Source of the DNA: Haplodiscus bocki
Taxonomy: Eukaryota
Length of the DNA: 64,000 nt
Direction of reading: 5' to 3'
Assembly: GCA_965655095.1 (NCBI GenBank)
Contig: OZ296652.1
Coordinates: 19,840,001 to 19,904,000 of the forward strand
The notes beneath the pieces are model-generated. The model was not told the origin of the DNA and searched no databases. It saw only the letters and a list, made by a program, of their open reading frames with translations. The position numbers and the translations under genes are program-made. Of the stretch, positions 11,973 through 64,000 are shown one piece after another. Each line of letters opens with the position of its first letter. The first letter of the stretch is position 1.

Positions 11973-13693
11973 TATCTTCAGAAAAAAATTTGAAAAGTGG
12001 CTCACAGAAAGATTCTAATCCGTAACCTTTGAGCTATGTAACCGCTTTATAAATGCGTTTCGTATCGGGCGTGGCCACAGGCGCAAATCTGCAGTGCTAA
12101 CTGTAAGTGCTATGTAATAAACACAAGAAACTAACTGAAGACGGTGTGTTAAGTGTTATTTCCGGAAGAAGAAAAAACTTCATTACTGAACTGAATAGTT
12201 TCGTTTCATAAAAAATTGAGACGGCACATAACAATAAAAAAAATTGATTTCCCGCTATGAATATATAAACCCGCAGAAAACAACCAACTCGACGCCGACA
12301 AGAAGGCTCAGTAAAACTCGTAGAAGCTTGGCTTTGGTGCTCAGAAAACATCTAGTTTATCGGGAAAATTTGTGAAAATTTGTGATATTATAATTTTGTA
12401 AGGAAACGCTTTCTCAAAGCGCAGAAAACTTGTTTCCGAAGAATACATTTCGCTACGTTATACACTCCCTTTGATAGGTTCTACCTTCAGTTGCAAACAA
12501 ATTTTCAATATGCAAAAGGGTGGAAGTATCACATAAAATTTTGGCACTGACTTTTTGGAAAGATTTAGGTGCTGGAAAAAATAGATTATCACGAAAAAAT
12601 TTCGAACTGAATGTCCAAAGGTTTTTGGGAAATACAATCGCGGGTATCGCAATAACATTCAGTATTTGCATTCTGGAAATTTTTCGAACTCAAAAGGGGT
12701 GTCAAGATTGATTTTTTTCGTTTTCTGCATTTTCAAAGTAAACAAGTCAGTTTGAAAAACTAAGTACTGTAATGGTCGGATCTGTCAATAGAATTGCTAA
12801 AGACGAGAATATCACGACCAACAAATCACTAAAGTTCAGGGAACGTTTGAATTACCTATCAATCACCCAGAAAAATTGTGGCGAAGAATAGAGGTCCAAG
12901 AAAACTTCATGGGGTGATAAATAGTTAGCAGACGTTCGCATTATGAGCTATGTTAGCCGGAAATAATAACTTTTTATTTATTGATGTTTCACAAATTAGC
13001 ACAAACCGACACTTCTCATTGCTCAGATATTCAGTCCCCCGGCACTCTAGCATCCCCCACAATCACTTCGCAACCCGTATTGTACCTGGCAGTGTCTTAC
13101 CATGAAGTAAAAGTTCTCATAAGAAAGTATTGAAAACATTAGGAAAAAAATTCACAATCGCAGTAGTGCGTGAGCGTGAAAAGCACAATCATGAACTAGC
13201 CCATGATATTAGCATTACACCAATTGGCCAGACATCATATTGTGAGTCAGCCCTACCGGAGATATCCATCAACTAGTGACATCGGTGAAACCGTAACAGT
13301 ACAAATCTTGAAAAAAATTTGTGAAATCTTACCGAAGGGATCAAGAACCCCTCGTATTTTCCTCTACCTGACATACATTAAACTTGACAAGAAGATTTTG
13401 AAACAATGACTCTCATGCTCGCATGAAGGATATACTAATCTATATAAATATTTTATGGATTTACCTTATGTCCTATTATGAAGCCGTTACAATTATAAAG
13501 TATCACTTAACATCTACGAACATATGCAGCATTATATATACCTGATATGAAACCCACTATGGCAATTACTTCCTCTCCAATTAAAATGAATACGATTACG
13601 TAATACTTATAGACGCGGAAAATGACGCAACACACACCTCAACTGACGACAATCCCACCACGTAACACAATCATTAAACGAGAAGATCAATGA

Positions 13694-14187
13694 GAAGTGA
13701 GCTAAAGTCCACCTCAGTTCACTGCAGTTAAATAGTACAGTATCAGTTTTATTATTTAGAGTAACCCGTAATGCACCTCGCTCGAAATTCAGTCTAGTTA
13801 AACAGTTCAGAAACTATATTCGAGAGTAGGTCGTATGACACATCACTCTAGTGCTATCTAAATTCATCATCACCGAATGTCATTGTTTAGAGTGAGCCTT
13901 AACACACCTCACTCAAAGTGCAGTTAAATTCTACAATCACGAAATTTTTTTACCGACAAGGAGCCGTACCACACTTCAGTATAGAACAACGAATGTACAC
14001 TGCATCAGAGGATCAATTTTGAAGCTGAGCTCCACCAGACTTCACTCTAGTGCATTTTAAATGTATGAGCGCTGGAACAACTTCGAAGTGTGCTAAACAT
14101 AAACTTATCCTCTTTTATCAAGTATTTACTCAAACGGTGCGAAGCAAACACGCTCATTTATAGTAAGCCGCACATGAGTTCACTATA
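13694..14187 (+). repeat. Array of 8 palindromic units (AGTGA-N13-TCACT), ~65-bp period, inside solo LTR 1
   Basis: Units start near 13694, 13757, 13822, 13888, 13955, 14020, 14084 and 14159; inter-unit sequences are poorly conserved. Confidence 0.8.
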
Positions 14188-14628
14188 GTCAAATAGACAA
14201 TTTGCAACCGACGCTTCCTCTAGCTTGATTTATTGAAGTAATTATATGATGCGAGGCCTTTATCGAGGCCATTAGCCATAAAAAGATCACATCCGCGGTC
14301 AAATTATTAAGTTAAAATGTAAATCAATGCAATTCATCAAAAATCTGAATTTTGAATGAAATTTTGCTGCTAGTTGATGAAGCAGGTACAGATGTGAGAA
14401 TGAAAACCAATGAGAAGCACTGAAACAATGACGTAATTTAATTGTGTCCGCAAGTAAGCCTCGGTCACCTCGCACAACTATACCTTAACACAACTTCTTG
14501 TCACTAGCTAGGATCACGACATCAGTCTAGCAATGTCGACTTTGTCAATTCATAACTTACTTTTGCTTGTATGTACAGACCGTTCTCAACAAAATGAAAT
14601 ATTTACGCCGGACAATCGTTTCTAGTTA

Positions 14629-14920
14629 ATGTTCAGCGGAGTTGAAAATAGCGCAAAAACACACGATAGCTCTACTGATTCTATCGAGTCAAAACACAAC
14701 CAGGAACAAAAAATGGCTACTCAAAAAAGGTTTCCAATGAGGTTACAAGCCAGTCAGTGAGCGCGCAAATGAAGCTGGCAACCGAGCCTATTCTCAGGCA
14801 AGTTGAGAAACTGTGCGCTTTATTTGCCGAATGGAACGACTTAGAAACTGTTGGAAACAACGAAGCTACCGGCTCGATGTACTGATACAACTGCAAGCTC
14901 ATCTGAAAACCAGTGCAACA
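14629..14920 (+). pseudogene. Frameshifted gag-like N-terminal ORF at end of solo LTR 1
   Basis: TAGTTA-ATG context as in copy 2. EVTSQSVSAQMKLATEPILRQVEKLCALFAEWNDLE aligns with ELTLGSVDEWIKQATDLILRRVDELCVLLAGRNEME of 58410-58721. Confidence 0.65.
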
Positions 14921-24950: not shown

Positions 24951-27900
24951 TTTGGCATTTTGGGCCCACCATAGTAAAAACGCAAAAAACACACCTGATG
25001 ATTCGGGATAGGAGCTGTCCTGTGAACATTACTGTTTTTACCAATTGAACACGTGGATCATCTGGGAACGTTTCCGGACTGTCCGGAAAACATTGAATTT
25101 TGAAAAAAATTATCTAATTTTGGAAGTGGCCGTGCTAATCTTCTTTTTGCTCGGCTGAACTCATGGGAAAATTTTTTGAACACTTTTTTTCCGAAATTCC
25201 TTGAAACTGATGTAATCCTCATTCATCCAAGGGCGAATAGTGTTTCATGACGTTCGTCATTCTTTCCGCGCCGACATACTGACAAACAAAAATGTACCGA
25301 ATAACTAAATTCTATAAAAACTATTTTTAACTTTAATTGCATACGTCATCGAAATGAATTCTTATTACAGACAGTGCATGCAAAAATAGCTCCAAGATTT
25401 TTTGAAATTAGTCAGACAGATATTAAACTAGGCACGTTCCTAGCGCGCTGCTCGTTTGCACTGACAACCACTAGTACTGCTCCGGAGAATTTCCGTATTC
25501 AACTAGTAGCATATAAGTAGCGGAGGACAAGAAGGATTAAAAAATGCAGTGGAATAAAATCCGTGTTCTTTTCGGCTTGAACTGCTTTAGCTTAACTGTA
25601 TCAGCCAAGTAATGAATTAATGACGTCACTAGACTAGTAGTGACAGAACAAACACTTACGGCGCAAATATTCAATCAGTAACTCTCTATTATTATATTTT
25701 AGTAGCTTTGGCACAGCTATTTTACAATTTTTTTTAATGGTGTTATCTTCTTAGTCAGTTGATACATTTCAAAGCTTGAAATACATGATGAAATAGGTAA
25801 ATAAAGTAAATATAGCAAGTTTCAGATGATAATAATAGGGACTCAAATAACTACTACTCTCTTCCGTACCTGCCCATCCTATCTTGCACAGAATAAGAAA
25901 AAAGTGATACGTTGATATAGTATGAATACGAGATAAGAAAAATGAAAATGAATATAGGATTTTTTCACTGAAGAGTTCTTATGGGTGTTAGGGGGATATT
26001 CTTTTTGCAGGAATGATCTGTCTGCAGGCTGTGCAGATGTGCTGCAACAAACCTGGAACAAACACATGATAAAGCGTTGCAATTCAGCAAGATGTTGGGC
26101 AATGCATTGCAAAACTTGATAAGGATGTAAGGATGTTACCAAAATCATTGATACTTATTCCAGAAAAATCGCAAATCACCTTTTTAATCTGGAAGTCCTG
26201 CATAAACGGCTTCAATGCAACAGGTGCCGGGAATCGCTTCCGAAGCTATCAATCATTGCAAAACTTCGTTACTGCGAAAAATCTTACAACACAAGCATAT
26301 CATAGAGATGCATAGTACATATGTTAGAGGCTTCTCATGAGTTGACCCTTCTCATAGAGTTCCACGAAACGTCTCATTTTCGAACAAACCTCGAACCGAG
26401 AGAATCGGTGCTTTCAATATTCAACAAACGCATAGGCGAAGCGGGAACTTCGAAACACTTGCTGATCGAAATGCGATCAGAATCCATTTTATGAAATATG
26501 CCAAATTCATTGCGAATTCTCAAAAGATTTCGAGGAAAACCAACAAGATTAATTACCCCAAGTCAATTGCAATTGAGAAAAATTGTTGAAAATGGGCAAG
26601 TTCTCAAATATGGTCATTATTGGAACATTTTTCCAAAATCAAATACAAACTTATGTACCAGAAAACCTCTAGATGCTAGGGGGCTCGATTAAGGTGTAAT
26701 TGGAAAGTGGGTATTCATGGATTTTTGAGCAATATTTCTCGTAAATAACCCGAAAATCTTTTTCCTGCAGACCACGTCTTACCATACTTAACATTTGAAT
26801 TATGGCTCAATAACCATAATGCAAGAAGTTGTTACTGAGAAAAATTGTTCTGAATACCAATAATGTCTACAAAATGTGTTTTCTTGAAATTAAAAAATAT
26901 GCTTTAAAATGAAAATGAAGCGCAAATACCTGTTCCTCTAGATTGCTTTTAACTGCAATCAAATCACCTGTCTGTTAAAGATCCGATGAACAAATTGCAA
27001 TGTGAATTAACCGAGGAAAGCTTTCTTAAAAAAAATAAATAAAAGTCTATAAAAAAGTGATTTTTGTCATTTCGATCAAAATCTTCTCCGAACCTAAACC
27101 GAATACAATAATCTGCCACTCTGTTTTGTCTTTTTAACATAGCTAGTTATCGATCAAGGTCTCGATGAGCACAATCGAATAGGCAGTTACCGTGAAAAAT
27201 TTTTACAATTCAGTCAAAGTCTACAGTGAGTCTTCTGACAGAAATAAAGTTTTTTTGAAAAATCGAACATCTAAGACAAAAATTTTTTCGAGTGAATTTT
27301 TCCCCCAAATATGGCCGTGTTTCAGAAAAATAATGGTTCAATTTGAGGAACGACATGGTTTTTCTTAATGATTACTAATAACTATTGAACTGAAGAAAAT
27401 GGCAAAAATTCAAAAAGGGTCAAGTCGCTGCCACACTCAAGACTCAAAATACTCGTATGAGAGAAGGAGCTTTGGTGTTACGAAAATGCCTCATTTCTTG
27501 GAATTTTGGAAACGCTTGTATTTTGGAATTTTGGAAACACGGAGTAATTTTGTGAGGAAGGTTTTCCTCTCAATGTGGAAAAAATTGTAATAGTGTTCTT
27601 TGCTACCGTATTGTTTCTGGGCAACTCAGTTGACAAAAAATGGATTAAGCAAATAAATGGGAGGCGGTATCAGGAAAAACTTTGATACTTGCTTTCAATA
27701 AAGTTCGGTGTTAGAGAGAATGGGGCATCACACCCAATGTTCAATTTTTTTGAAAGACAATTGTAGGGGATACGCCGAAAAAATTTCCTTGCGCCTCCTC
27801 GAATTTTTTTGGATTCAAAGTGGTGGGGGTGTCGTCCTTTTTTCCAACAAAATGAATAATCCAAATCGCGATATTTAAAAATTTGTCATCTGCCTTTGTA

Positions 27901-57003: not shown

Positions 57004-58710
57004 TGCTATGCTCGCATGAAGGAAATACCAACTACATAGTTATACTTTGCGATCAGCCCATGTCCTATTATGAAGCCCCTACATCTATCTAGTATCACTT
57101 TATACATACGAGCGTATGCAGCATTATATACACTTGATATGAACGCCATTATATCTTATTACTCCATCTCCCGACCATATGAACGCGATTAAATATAATT
57201 TATAAATATGGAAAACGATATTATACACGCTTCAAATTATTGATCTCCATGCTACGCACCTTAGCCAAAAATTGGATAATCATTTGGAAGTGAGGTGCAG
57301 AACACCCCACTTCACTGCAGTTATAACCGCACCACATTTAATTTATACATTAGAGTGAGCTGCAAAACACATCACTCTGAAACACAGAAGTTCCGCGCAA
57401 AAAGTGATCATTTAAATTGAGTTAGCTTAACTTCACATCACCACCGTGCTACTCAAACGCATTCGTCAAATATTGTCCATCAATTAAAAGTAAGCTGCAA
57501 TATGCATCACCTCACCGAAAATTGAATCTGTAATTTTGCAATTCATTGATTAGACTGAGCCGACACACGCCTCACTCCAAAAATGCAGGTTGTATAAGCT
57601 TTGATCAAAATCATCATTTGAAGTGAACTGTAATACAAATCATTCACAGCTCAGTAAAAAATGAACGCTGTCAAATTTTATTAGCAAGAGTGAACCGTAC
57701 CACGCCTCACTCTCGAACGTCCATATTTTCCCCGCAGCATAGCAAACCTCACTCTAGTGATTTTTATTTAAATACGCGCGTAAATTGCTTTAAAGTGTGT
57801 TAGACGAAATACCAGCATCATTTGAAGTGTTTGTTCAGCCAGTGCTAGGAATACACGACCAATTACAAAGAGCCGCACATAAGCTCACTTCAGCCATCCT
57901 AAAAAAATACAATTGACGCAAATTAGTGCTTTTGGTGATGAATTAATTGTCTTATGTAATTAACGAGACTGTCTCTACATCACGCATGTGCCCAAAACCA
58001 CCAATATTAATTTCTAAAGACGGTGCAATATTAGAAATGTGTTAAATAGGATGGAAAATTGGTGCTAGCTAAAATAGTGTGAAGTTTAGGTGTGAAGACG
58101 AGATCCAATGAGAAACACCCAAATAGTCACGGGACTTAATTGCGTCCGCAATTAAAACACAACCCACTCGGTGTAAAAAACCTCACCAGCACCTGATAGA
58201 ACATTGACTTCGACGCAACCAGTGTTACGTTGCTACGAAATTTTTGTGACTTCAAAATGAAAAATCTTAACCTCGCTTATAATACACTTAGTCTTTGACT
58301 TAGTTTCTATACTTCTACTTTCTGCTTGCTTCGTAAACTCACTGTAGGTAAACCATTGCCTACAATCGAAATTCAATACATCAACATTAACAAGACCTTT
58401 CTTTAGTTAATGAGTGAAGAAACAGAAATCGGCACTCAGACATCAAATAGTTCCTCTGAAACAATTGAACTAAGATTCAGAAAAGAGTCGGAGACTGACA
58501 CTCCCGGTACCGAAACATCCATTGGTGAACTGACTCTAGGATCAGTTGACGAATGGATAAAACAAGCGACTGACCTAATCCTCAGACGAGTGGATGAATT
58601 ATGTGTTCTGTTAGCGGGTCGGAACGAAATGGAATCCGCTGAGAACAGTGAAGTGTCCAGTTTGAGGCGTAATCGTGAGTCTATTAGCCCCTCACGTAAC
58701 CGGTACAACA
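57004..58710 (+). mobile_element. Solo LTR (copy 2), intact termini
   Basis: TG...CA termini flanked by a perfect 5-bp TSD CCCGG (56999-57003 and 58711-58715); CCAAT box at 58105-58109; homologous to 13411-14920. Confidence 0.9.
57287..57891 (+). repeat. Array of ~10 AGTGA-N13-TCACT palindromic units inside solo LTR 2
   Basis: Units near 57287, 57351, 57417, 57486, 57551, 57619, 57686, 57745 (half), 57791 and 57866. Confidence 0.8.
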
Positions 58711-59101: not shown

Positions 59102-59290
59102 CAAGACGGCCGGCTAGCACCGGCATATTTTTCGCCCAACTACAAATATTTTGATCAACTTTGTCAAACGGTTAAAAACAAAACAACTGTTTTGATAATA
59201 AATTTCAAAGAGTTTTCACAAATATCAATTCCACTACTGATTTCTGTACTTTATGCAAAAGGGTATCACGATTTTCCGTTGAGAAATTTT
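59102..59290 (-). mobile_element. 3' terminus of a HINE-like element adjoining the satellite
   Basis: CAAGACGGCCGGCTAGCACCGGCATATTTTTCGCCC matches the terminus at 56005 (stem-loop GCCGG-N6-CCGGC plus sub-TIR). Confidence 0.75.
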
Positions 59291-62200
59291 TGCCTCACAG
59301 TGCCGAAAGCATTCGTCGAGAAACCCTTCTGTGTTTCAGAAAATTTCTGGTACCGAAAAATGTTAAGGATAAGAGAGGGGGCGGGTATCGCGATTTTTTG
59401 TCAAAGTTGTTGTCTCACAGTGCCGAAAAACTTCGTAGCGCAAGCCTTTTATGTTTCAAAAAAATTCCAGTATCGAAAAAGTTTATGAATAAGAGGGGGG
59501 AGGAGGAGGAATCGAGTATCACAATATTCTGTCGAAAATTTTTTCTCCCACAGTGCTGAAAAACTTCGTAGAGGAACCCTTCTGTGCTGTGTTTCAGAAA
59601 ATTTCTGCTAGCAAAAAAGTGTACGGACAAGAAGGGGGGAGGGGGGAGTATCGAAATTTTCCGTCAACATTTTTTTGTCTCAAAGTGCCAAAAAAATTCG
59701 TAGGGGAAGCCTTTAGTCTTTCATTAATTTCGGGTGTCGAAAAAAATTATGCTTCAAAGGCTTATGTCACGACTTTCTATCGAAACTTTTTTGAATCACA
59801 GGACCCAGACATTTCGTAGAGGAACTCTTCTGTGCTGTTTTTCGGAAAATATCTAGTAACAAAAAAGTTTACGGATAAGAATGGGGGGGAGTATGAAGAT
59901 ATTCCGTCGAAAATTTCTTCTCTCACAGTGTCTCCCCGTAGCGGAACCACTTAGTATTTCACTAATTGCGGGTATTGAAAAAAATTATGCTTCAGAGGTT
60001 TATTTGCCAATTTTCCGTCAAAATTGTTGTGTCTCAAAGTGCCGAAAAATGCCGTAGGGGAACCCTTTAGTCTTGCATTAATTTCGGGTATCGAAAAAAT
60101 TCATGCTTCAAAGGCTTATGTCACGATTTTCTGTCGGAAACTTTTTGTCTCACAGTACCGAAACATTTCGTAGAGGAACCCTTCTGTGCTGTGTTTCAGG
60201 AAATTTCTGGTAGCAAATAAGTTTACGGATAAGAAGGGGGGAGGGGGGAGTATCGAAAGTTTCCGTCGACATTTTTTTTGTCTCAAAGTGCCAAAAAATT
60301 TCGTAGAGGAAGCCTTTAGTCTTTCATTAATTTCGGGTGTCGAAAAAATTTATGCTTCAAACGGTTATGTCACGATTTTCTATCGAAAACTTTTTGTCTC
60401 ACAGGACCCAAACATTTCGTAGAGGAGCTCTTCTGTGCTGTTTTTCGGAATATTTCTAGTAACAAAAAAGTTTACGGATAAGAATGGGGGGGGGGAATAT
60501 GAATATATTCCGTCGAAATTTCTTGTCTCACAGTGTCTCCCCGTAGCGGAACCCCTTAGTATTTCACTAATTGCGGGTATCGAAAAAATTTTAGCTTCAG
60601 AGTGTTATGTGACGATTTTCCGTCAAAGTTTTTTTGTCTCAAAGTGCCGAAAAATGCCGTAGGGGAACACTTTAGTCTTTCATTAATTTCGGATATCAAA
60701 AAATTCATGCTTCAAAGGCTTATGTCAAGATTTTCTGTCGGAAAAATTTTGTCTCACAGTACCGAAACATTTCGTAGAGGAACCCTTCTGTGCTGTGTTC
60801 CAGAAAATTTCTGGTAGCAAAAAAGTTTATGAATAAGAAGGGGGGAGGGGGAGTTTCGAAATTTTCCGTGGACAATTTTTTGTCTCAAAGTGCCAAAAAA
60901 TGCCGTAGGGAAACCCTTTAGTCTTTCATTAAATTCGGGTATCGAGAAAATTCATGCTTCAAAGGGTTATGTCATGATTATCTGTCGAAAATCTTTTGTT
61001 TCACAGTACCCAAACATTTCGTAGAGGAAGCCTTCTGTGCTGTTTTTCGGAAAAATTCTAGAACCGAAAAAGTTTACGGATGCGAATGGGAGGTGGAGTA
61101 TAAAAATATTCCGTGGAAAGTTTTTTGTCTCAAAGTGCCGAAAAATGCCCTAGGGTAAGCCTTTAGTCTTTCATTAATTTCGGGTATCGAAAAAATTTAT
61201 GCTTCAAAGGGTTATGTCACGATTTTCTAACGAAAATTTTTTGTCTCACTGTACCCAAACATTTCGTAGAGGAACCCTTCTGTGCTGTTTTTCGGAAAAT
61301 TTCTAGTAACGAAAAAGATTACGGATAAGAATGGGGGGGGAGCAGGAAGATTATCCGTTGAAAATTTCTTGTCTCACAGTGTCTCCCCGTAGGGGAACCC
61401 CTTAGTATTTCACTAATTGCGGGTATCGAAAAAAATTATGCTTCAGAGGTTTATTTGCCAATTTTCCGTCGAAATTGTTGTGTCTCAAATTTCCGAAAAA
61501 TGCCGTAGGGGAACCCTTTAGTCTTTCATTAATTTCGGGTATCGAAAAAACTCATGCTTCAAAGGCTTATGTCACGACTTTCTGTCGAAAATTTTTTGTT
61601 TCACAGTACCCAAACATTTCGTAGAGGAAACCTTCTGTGCTGTTTTTCGGAAAATTTCTAGAACCGAAAAAGTTTACGGATGAGAATGGGAGGGGGGGAG
61701 TATGAAGATATTCCGTCGAAAATTTCTTGTCTCACAGTGTCTCCCGTAGGGGAACCCCTTAGTATTTCACTAACTGCGGGTATCGGAAAAATTTATGCCC
61801 TCAGAGTGTTGTGTGACGATTTTCCGTCGAAGGTTTTTTGTCTCAAAGTGCCGAAAAATGCCGTAGGGGAACCCTTTAGTCTTTCATTAATTTCGGGTAT
61901 CCAAAAAATTTGTGCTTCAAAGGGTTATGTCACGATTTTCTATCGAAATTTTTTTGTCTCACAGTACCGAAACATTTCGTAGAGGAACCCTTCTCTGCTG
62001 TTTTTCGGAAAATTTCTACTAACGAAAAAGTTTACGGATAAGAATGGGGGGGAGTATGAAGATATTCCTTCGAAAATTTCTTGTCTCACAGTGTCTCCCC
62101 GTAGGGGAACCCCTCAGTATTTCACTAATTGCGGGAATCGGAAAAATTTATGCTTTACGGTGTTATGTGACAACTTTCCGTCGAAATTGTTTTGTCTCAA

Positions 62201-64000
62201 GGTGCCGAAAAACGCCGTAGGGGAACCCTTTAGTCTTTCATTAATTTCGTGTATCAAAAAATTTCATGTTTCAAAGGGTTATGTCACGATTTTCTATCGA
62301 AATTTTTTTGTCTCACAGTACCCAAACATTTCGTACAGGAACCCTTCTCTGCTGTTTTTCGGAAAATTTCTAGTAACGAAAAAGTTTACGGATAAGAATT
62401 GAGGGGAGTATGAAGAAATTCCGTCGAAAATTTCTTGTCTCAGAGTGTCTCCCCGTAGGGGAACCCCTCAGTATTTCACTAATTGCGGGAATCGAAAAAA
62501 AATTATGCTTTAGGGTGTTATGTGACAACTTTCCGTCGAAATTGTTTTGTCTCAAGGTGCCGAAAAATGCCGTAGGGGAACCCTTTAGTCTTTCATTAAT
62601 TTCGGGTATCGAAAAAATTTATGCTTCAAAGGGTTATGTCACGATTTTCTAACGAAAATTTTTTGTCTGACTGTACCCAAACATTTCGTAGAGGAACCCT
62701 TCTGTGCTGTTTTTCGGAAAATTTCCAGTAACGAAAAAGTTTACGGATAAGAATGGGGGAGGGGAGTATGAAGATATTCCGTCGAAAATTTCTTGTCTCA
62801 CAGTGTCTCCCCGTAGGGGAACCCCTCAGTATTTCACTAATTGCTGGAATCGAAAAAATTTATGCTTTAGGGTGTTATGTGACAACTTTCCGTCGAAATT
62901 GTTTTGTCTCAAGGTGCCGAAAAATGCCGTAGGGGAATCCTTTAGTCTTTTATTAAGTTAGTGTATCAAAAAAAATCATGCTTCAAAGGATTATGTCACG
63001 ATTTTCTATCGAAAATTTTTTGTCTCACAGTACCCAAACATTTCGTACAGGAACCCTTCTCTCCTGTTTTTCGGAAAATTTCTAGTAACGAAAAAGTTTA
63101 CGGATAAGAATGGGGGGGGAGTATGAAGAAATTCCGTCGAAAATTTCTTCTCTCACAGTGTCTCCCCGTAGCGGAACCACTTAGTATTTCACTAATTGCG
63201 GGTATTGAAAAAAATTATGCTTCAGAGGTTTATTTGCCAATTTTCCGTCAAAATTGTTGTGTCTCAAAGTTCCGAAAAATGCCGTAGGGGAACCCTTTAG
63301 TCTTGCATTAATTTCGGGTATCGAAAAAATTCATGCTTCAAAGGCTTATGTCACGATTTTCTGTCGGAAACTTTTTGTCTCACAGTACCGAAACATTTCG
63401 TACAGGAACCCTTCTCTGCTGTTTTTCGGAAAATTTCTAGTAACGAAAAAGTTTACGGATAAGAATGGGGGGGAGTATGAAGAAATTCCGTCGAAAATTT
63501 CTTCTCTCACAGTGTCTCCCCGTAGCGGAACCACTTAGTATTTCACTAATTGCGGGTATCGAAAAAATTTTTTGCTTCAGAGGGTTATGTGACGATTTTC
63601 CGTCAAAATTTTTTTGTCTCAAAGTGCCGAAAAATGCCGTAGGGGAACCCTTTAGTCTTGCATTAATTTCGGGTATCGAAAAAATTCATGCTTCAAAGGC
63701 TTATGTCACGATTTTCTGTCGGAAACTTTTTGTCTCACAGTACTGAAACATTCCGTAGAGGAACCCTTCTGTGCTGTGTTTCAGAAAATTTCTGGTAGCA
63801 AAAAAGTTTACGGATAAGAAGGGGGGAGGGGGGAGTATCGAAAGTTTCCGTCGACATTTTTTTTGTCTCAAAGTGCCAAAAAATTTCGTATAGGAAGCCT
63901 TTAGTCTTTCATTATTTTCGGGTATCGAAAAAACTCATGCTTCAAAGGCTTATGTCACGACTTTCTGTCGAAAATTTTTTGTTTCACAATACCCAAACAT
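59291..64000. repeat. Satellite array of ~110-130 bp related monomers with higher-order repeats (~355 and ~600 bp); continues past window end
   Basis: About 40 monomers, each starting TGTCTCA(C/A)AGT and containing CGTAG(A/G)GGAACCC; four distinguishable variants recur in a regular order. Confidence 0.97.

Follow-up and report, generated by a model that had tools for sequence, protein, structure and literature searches.

Palindrome arrays in the long terminal repeats of an old Ty3/Gypsy family and a candidate antisense zinc-finger partner

The window analysed here, a 64,000-nucleotide stretch of Haplodiscus bocki contig OZ296652.1, holds two solo long terminal repeats (LTRs) of Ty3/Gypsy retrotransposons, each with an array of short palindromic sites. 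The first is a decayed copy of subfamily A1, 1510 bp long (13409..14918, + strand), delimited by boundaries common to its homologues, with which it shares sharp ends and 66-75% identity; its own 5-bp flanks match at 2 of 5 positions only. The second belongs to subfamily B (L068; 57004..58710, +) and sits within a perfect 5-bp target duplication. The two LTR copies mentioned in a sequence-only reading of the window do not form an LTR pair: each is a solo LTR from a different subfamily, with 43.6 kb between them and different flanks.

A profile scan of the first LTR placed nine 25-bp dyads at 13620..14185 (+), at steps of 63-75 bp. Unit 1 (13620..13644; 14.8 bits) is degenerate, and it is followed by unit 2 (13695..13719; 20.5 bits), unit 3 (13759..13783; 21.2 bits), unit 4 (13824..13848; 17.7 bits), the best preserved unit 5 (13890..13914; 36.6 bits), unit 6 (13957..13981; 18.7 bits), unit 7 (14023..14047; 21.1 bits), the nearly lost unit 8 (14086..14110; 5.7 bits) and unit 9 (14161..14185; 13.7 bits), all on the + strand. 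The array had previously been put at 13694..14187, a range that excludes unit 1; its existence stands, but its start moves one unit upstream to 13620, with nine slots in all, the one at 14086 almost gone. The same scan of the second LTR found eight clear units and a partly deleted one (57288..57890, +). Downstream of the first array lie a CCAAT motif (14407..14411, +) that is likely part of the sense promoter, found in the same alignment column in 9 of 19 A1 and 25 of 37 B copies, and, in the 3′ part of the LTR, the decayed start of a gag-like frame (14713..14918, +), broken by stops and frameshifts. Because both of these features lie downstream, as does a TATA-like box relative to the dyads of young sister elements, the array is probably in U3. 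The gag frame begins inside the LTR in families A-D (at 14713 and 58410 in the window) and reads through the primer site in full elements.

Scans of the window, the genome and the collected LTR copies, each set against controls, bear out the recurrence of AGTGA-N13-TCACT palindromes. In the window 27 dyad matches were counted against 6.6 expected (0 of 100 shuffles), and across the 1.5-Gb genome the pattern RAGTGAGC-N11-TCACTY has 1074 matches versus 26 for its reversed control. Of 87 LTR heads 4 were left out as near-identical, and a profile made from the remaining 83 copies detects a mean of 8.6 units per 1.3 kb in them versus 0.025 in 40 shuffled copies, and 424 of the 631 unit-to-unit intervals measure 63-69 bp. 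The 13-nt arm spacing noted earlier in nearly all units also holds: the exact N13 gap has 198 occurrences in 74 LTRs, a minority of which had been gathered with an N13 pattern, followed by N18 with 24 and every other gap with at most 3. For the unit statistics 74 LTRs were kept, once those with fewer than six units had been removed along with L049, L052 and L092, which are truncated or duplicates. Among sampled genome-wide pattern loci, which are partly redundant, 25 of 29 fall on an LTR alignment and the remaining 4 lie close to 2-6 units. The array reads identically in contigs that span it from two DNA runs. Tandem Repeats Finder did not detect the array in the window, and Rfam gave no match on it, its single weak match in the window, to MIR408 (26 of 64 bits), lying outside the array.

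The LTRs end in TGTCA...CGACA-like sequences and are flanked by 5-bp target duplications. Flanks of 48 copies match at 0.70 in this register versus 0.24 and 0.25 in other registers, which sets aside a 6-bp duplication. In full elements the LTR pairs are 75-91% identical and spaced 11-14 kb, the primer site matches tRNA-Leu(CAG) at two of five loci, and a purine run precedes the 3′ LTR; old copies have RNase H before integrase, and young sisters the complete order of protease, RT, RNase H and integrase. Paired LTRs, primer site, purine tract and the placement of RNase H before integrase together identify these elements as Ty3/Gypsy, and the paired LTRs, primer site and pol rule out that the 1.5-kb repeat stems from a Helitron or a TIR transposon. 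The retroelement LTR context recognized beforehand is therefore correct, on the evidence of the LTR pairs, target duplications, primer site and pol, and the first array is part of a dead and decayed solo LTR from an old Ty3/Gypsy family. At five further old integrase loci, LTRs were found at two (L171, L173), neither with an array, and none at three. CpG dinucleotides have an observed/expected ratio of 0.97, and CpG transitions stand at 0.0036 versus 0.0035 in young copies. Neither CpG depletion nor CpG hypermutation was found in the window or the LTR alignments, and these figures give no sign of the host methylating these elements.

Comparison of units within and between LTR copies separates what was kept from what was free to change. 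In subfamily B, the same unit compared across copies is 0.84 identical in the arms, 0.76 in the core and 0.77 in the spacer, whereas different units are 0.80 identical in the arms, 0.53 in the core and 0.495 in the spacer, with 0.456 for shuffled spacers. Net divergence between units is 0.03 for arms versus 0.41 for spacers, and between subfamilies 0.03 versus 0.11-0.17. Both the AGTGA arms and the 13 bp between them were thus under selection, and the spacers drifted, in agreement with the earlier proposal that dyad symmetry and spacing, and not the spacers, had been maintained. The spacers are orthologous between copies and between subfamilies; for B against A2 the best match lies on the diagonal. 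Taken with the between-unit and between-copy identities and the net divergence, this indicates that the spacers are old, diverged tandem copies passed on by descent and not acquired sequence.

These observations weigh on the possibility that the units form an array of a CRISPR-like kind or of recombination sites, its spacers being acquired or its transcripts giving phased small RNAs. A palindromic repeat alternating with a variable spacer of 38-44 bp does look the part. However, the spacers are inherited by descent, as their 0.77 identity between copies attests, and they find no outside source in the 1.02 Mb of other DNA searched, where 15 of 500 real spacers versus 9 of 500 shuffled ones had matches (16-20 nt among the matches listed). 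Nor was any nuclease or recombinase family present in the ORFs scanned. We consider such an array extremely improbable, and neither the repeat-spacer acquisition nor the recombination-site-like elements entertained in the sequence-only reading are upheld. Helical phasing of the units at about six turns is rejected as well, as the period is loose, with class periods of 63-69, 73-75 and 56-57 bp around a rigid internal gap. Constant sequence and gap together with a loose period suit a dimeric binder and do not suit a phased array; a dimeric DNA-binding protein, one of the options first raised, is the best general reading.

Array growth can be followed in the young sister family C, whose LTR pairs are 95.7-99.8% identical and whose 62-bp unit has a longer dyad. 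The first 100 of 274 exact matches fall in 60 LTRs, of which 28 have one unit, 25 two, 6 three and 1 four, and both LTRs of a pair agree in 19 of 22 pairs; mutated units drop out of this tally, which took exact matches only. The motif thus accumulates in family C via gain and loss of tandem repeats, and in young sister families the unit number changes during transposition. Elsewhere, subfamily A1 has fewer slots than A2 and B, family D has only three LTR dyads, and family F has one weak unit in its LTR although it possesses the finger described below. In family E (L239, L243, L246) the LTR has a variable number of 37-bp tandem units, each including an 8-bp palindrome. Between the dyads and the TATA-like box, the L163 and L159 LTRs have repeated motifs that we take to be E2F-like (family C) and TCF-like (families C and D).

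Such turnover might produce the array as a neutral, functionless by-product, a palindromic unit being amplified by slippage and its symmetry maintained via template switching. The fast change of unit number in young families would be expected on this account, as would the perfect palindromes of both left-arm and right-arm type in clade C. Template switching, however, keeps symmetry and not one particular sequence over units whose spacers are near saturation, and the copies scattered through internal regions (see below) are left unexplained. We judge a neutral origin very unlikely.

The clade also encodes a candidate DNA-binding protein. Behind pol, young families C and D have antisense ORFs with a CxxC-x16-H-x5-H zinc finger, 30% identical between the two families. 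The domain belongs to a large family (977 representatives at 50% identity); in 41 sequences C23, C26 and H43 are invariant and H49 is present in 90%, and a predicted structure has two strands and a helix (pLDDT 69). An antisense finger, now decayed, is also found in subfamily B, where the ligands survive as Cys in 17, Cys in 15, His in 17 and His in 16 of 28 old copies (duplicate locus L229 left out), all four together in none. Its frame has a third-position excess (0.265/0.226/0.380), and its profile matched 18 of 149 finger proteins at E<0.05 (best 6e-6) versus none for the reversed profile; in single-copy searches one reversed control reached E 0.005. These signatures indicate that the antisense finger frame of the clade, including that of array-bearing subfamily B, was under purifying selection. 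The finger is known from the internal region of subfamily B, the sister of the window's A1, and from the young families.

Several weak matches concur on the affinity of the finger. Atlas leads were SPIN-DOC/FAM200/zf-BED at 0.91-0.92, and hAT dimerisation, weakly, at 0.84-0.85 for the last antisense piece. With the predicted finger model, Foldseek ranked the ZBED1 BED domain first and ZBED2 fourth (E 0.25, none significant), and VIA ranked the RNA-binding TUT1/TUT4/SF3A2 fingers first, slightly above BED (Z 3.5). Pfam assigned SPIN-DOC to only 2 of 60 finger family members and returned no hAT match in the ORFs scanned, a PDB sequence search gave a single match at E 0.16, and a fold search with a 181-residue model gave nothing clear. 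Protein searches found no longer relatives of the post-integrase frame or of the second antisense frame, which is weak evidence, and profiles of the middle and last antisense pieces in old copies found nothing above the reversed control. The concordant if weak matches suggest that the finger is BED/SPIN-DOC-like and that the antisense gene apparently derives from a hAT-type transposase with its dimerisation region. Pieces of the antisense ORF are flanked by donor- and acceptor-like sites (L163:9637-12981 and L159:9592-13769, both − strand). The pieces are suggestive of one intron-bearing gene, which its antisense orientation would keep intact. A sense ORF with a CxxC motif (L159:14487-15452, +) ends inside the 3′ LTR, and its counterpart in L157 has no Pfam match.

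Dyads also occur outside the LTRs. When seven old elements are averaged, a 1.3-kb stretch behind pol contains the two top dyad sites of the 11-12-kb internal region and three of the top five; this interval was fixed after a prior scan, and 60 permuted profiles give 0.02-0.07 for the concentration. The internal sites occur in both orientations and outside any 66-bp repeat, and keep one strong half with poor pairing. For family C, whose dyad was defined beforehand from its LTR, there are three sites behind pol versus 0.10 expected (0 of 300 shuffles), one right at the start of the finger frame, and none in gag-pol or in six other elements. The family D dyad is found at three places in the front of the LTR, at two near the end of pol and at one between accessory ORFs, and it is confined to D. 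That a dyad is exclusive to the LTR of its own family partly follows from how it was defined; the information lies in the internal sites and in the zero counts for other families. The half-site count behind pol is significant in one of four single B copies and not in family F, whose internal region yielded no significant dyad site. Each family tested thus has its own dyad, in the LTR and, for B, C and D, scattered near or behind the pol end, and the density of a family-specific motif in non-coding parts is clear for B (in the multi-copy test), C and D and not for F. Of nine further elements fetched for pairing finger with motif, seven lacked an RT match and eight a finger match.

The swap of motifs between families bears on another explanation, in which the dyads are sites of a dimeric transcription or insulator factor of the host, forming a duplicated U3 enhancer or gypsy-insulator-like array, and the finger does something else. 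Family F has the finger without the array, and the right half of the dyad resembles what we take to be paired-domain and T-box sites. Fixed arms, a rigid gap and AT-rich variable spacers could be said just as well of the 12 Su(Hw) sites in the Drosophila gypsy insulator, which in the available text of its description likewise belongs to a Gypsy element and has about a dozen conserved protein sites with variable AT-rich DNA between them (PMC2374998). Those sites differ in lying in the 5′ UTR, within 340 bp, and in being non-palindromic 12-bp motifs for a host protein (PMC2374998). Against a host factor, the sister families replace the motif as a whole, and do so in concert in the LTR and behind pol, and the sampled genome-wide matches lie in or beside these arrays. 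We regard a host factor as unlikely.

Base pairing within the units invites a different interpretation, that of hairpins, formed by RNA or single-stranded DNA and situated either at the 3′ end of genomic RNA or in an antisense transcript. A protein would read them, perhaps the same finger acting in a Rev/Rex-like manner, with a role in export, packaging or stability. Single units fold at -4.9 to -6.6 kcal/mol on the plus strand and -7.0 to -8.5 kcal/mol on the minus strand, compared with -2.6 to -2.9 kcal/mol for shuffled units. The outermost pair, 1-25, flips between A-T and G-C, and pair 10-16 flips once; mismatches are G-U on the antisense strand in 19 of 22 cases (P 0.009 if independent, 0.09 at half weight); inner pairs of the clade C dyad covary, G-T included (AG/CT, AA/TT, GG/TT); and the finger model also resembles RNA-binding fingers of the U1/matrin type. 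Template switching at palindromes can, however, mimic covariation. Over 16 class states the AGTGA arms keep the same standard pairs in 77 of 80 cases, with no double-sided swap at positions 2-6, so that the covariation of outer arm bases described earlier is true of the outermost pair and not of the AGTGA arms. The arms never swap, the loop length is invariant, positions 8 and 18 are both C in 15 of the 16 class states, the internal sites pair poorly, with one strong half and in both orientations, and whole-region folding equals that of shuffles (z 0.03 and 0.44). We likewise regard hairpins as the functional form as unlikely.

The antisense finger gene, together with a different site in each sister family, points to the array as a likely landing pad for the element's own regulator and not a CRISPR-like memory. 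In the form that we favour, and to which we give about even chances, the array is a platform for a zinc-finger protein made from the antisense strand of the element, which would activate or shield its own family. The chain of events would begin with dyad sites in the LTR of the old Ty3/Gypsy family, of which the window copy is a dead solo LTR, and with a dyad-bearing unit of about 62-66 bp that is gained or lost whole and inherited by both LTRs, as seen in the young sister and presumed for the old family. Duplication would add sites and selection would keep them, fixing the AGTGA arms and the 13-bp gap as the spacers drift. The clade, subfamily B included, has the selected antisense CxxC-x16-H-x5-H frame, which would supply a putatively BED/SPIN-DOC-like finger of hAT-type transposase origin, whose dimerisation region would suit dyad sites, and each family tested has its own dyad in the LTR and, for B, C and D, near or behind the pol end. 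As candidate final steps, the finger protein would bind the dyads as a dimer, and binding would activate, de-silence or insulate the LTR promoters. It is co-occurrence that pairs finger and dyad and makes the finger a candidate binder. A broader scenario, which we put forward more tentatively, is that a Gypsy clade took up a hAT-transposase gene in antisense and retained its finger as a private transcription factor, finger and dyad then diversifying as lock-and-key pairs in a VANC-like self-recognition, with hundreds of solo LTRs as ready-made target arrays.

Repeated U3 elements that answer virus-encoded transactivators occur in HTLV-1, with the 21-bp repeats responding to Tax, and in foamy viruses with Tas. 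These are vertebrate retroviruses, and differ in their unrelated proteins and few repeats. A closer likeness is to the VANC proteins of VANDAL elements and TnpA of Spm, described in the accessible portions of two reports as binding dense family-specific motifs that grew by tandem duplication (PMC5735166; bioRxiv 10.64898/2026.08.24.746577): here too an element would encode a protein matched to a family-specific motif that is dense in non-coding parts, tandem-grown and diverging between families. Those systems differ in being plant DNA transposons with 8-10-bp motifs and demonstrated DNA demethylation (PMC5735166; bioRxiv 10.64898/2026.08.24.746577), whereas the system in the window is a retrotransposon with a 25-bp dyad, a BED-like candidate finger and no CpG-decay signature. 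Because CpG decay is lacking, a VANC-like demethylation role as such is unlikely, and if copies were shielded, DNA methylation would not be the obvious threat. The word retrotransposon is absent from the main text of the TnpA/Spm preprint (bioRxiv 10.64898/2026.08.24.746577).

Plant Gypsy elements of the Retand/Tat group also combine antisense ORFs, encoding TRP28, with repeat arrays, whose function is called unknown in the available text of PMC11963269. Their arrays are internal, their domain is TRP28 and that text reports no match of motif and protein (PMC11963269), whereas the present clade has an LTR array and a zinc-finger domain. As regards the finger, the available description of Hermes has two BED domains binding a quasi-palindrome with AAGT cooperatively (PMC10368747); the RAGT with which each arm begins here is comparable to that AAGT core. 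Hermes differs in that its sites are 4 bp and adjacent and its protein is an active transposase (PMC10368747); the half-site here, at 12 bp, is longer than the 4-bp site of a Hermes BED domain. The term BED is absent from the main text of a survey of transposon-captured domains (PMC3597677), and the open-access literature, as far as its available text goes, yielded no description of an LTR dyad array combined with an antisense finger, which is not proof of absence. Element-encoded, sequence-specific self-activation has so far been shown for plant DNA transposons. In the present clade a candidate protein and a candidate site coincide in several families whose motifs differ, young ones included, and the question is thus directly testable. 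If the proposed pairing is true, it would represent a new route by which retrotransposons borrow DNA-transposon parts for self-control, and solo LTRs would be predicted to respond in trans to active relatives.

Other repeats were noticed along the way. A 2373-bp tandem repeat at L035 (G000:C3108), with units 99.9% identical and an array-bearing LTR in each, is an LTR-derived satellite, and the tRNA-Leu(CAG) 3′-end motif recurs at multiples of about 424 bp at G000:C1:161.09-161.14 Mb, probably as a tandem tRNA array. Within the window, a fragment at 25004-25216 (−) resembles the gag start of young family C, and dispersed repeats form one direct pair of 80% identity and two inverted pairs of 82% and 76% (7544-8274/18823-19559, 36227-36592/37414-37777 and 50404-50928/56003-56506). 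The end of the window, 59284-64000, is a satellite-like tandem array with periods of 116-120, 240-249 and 355 bp.
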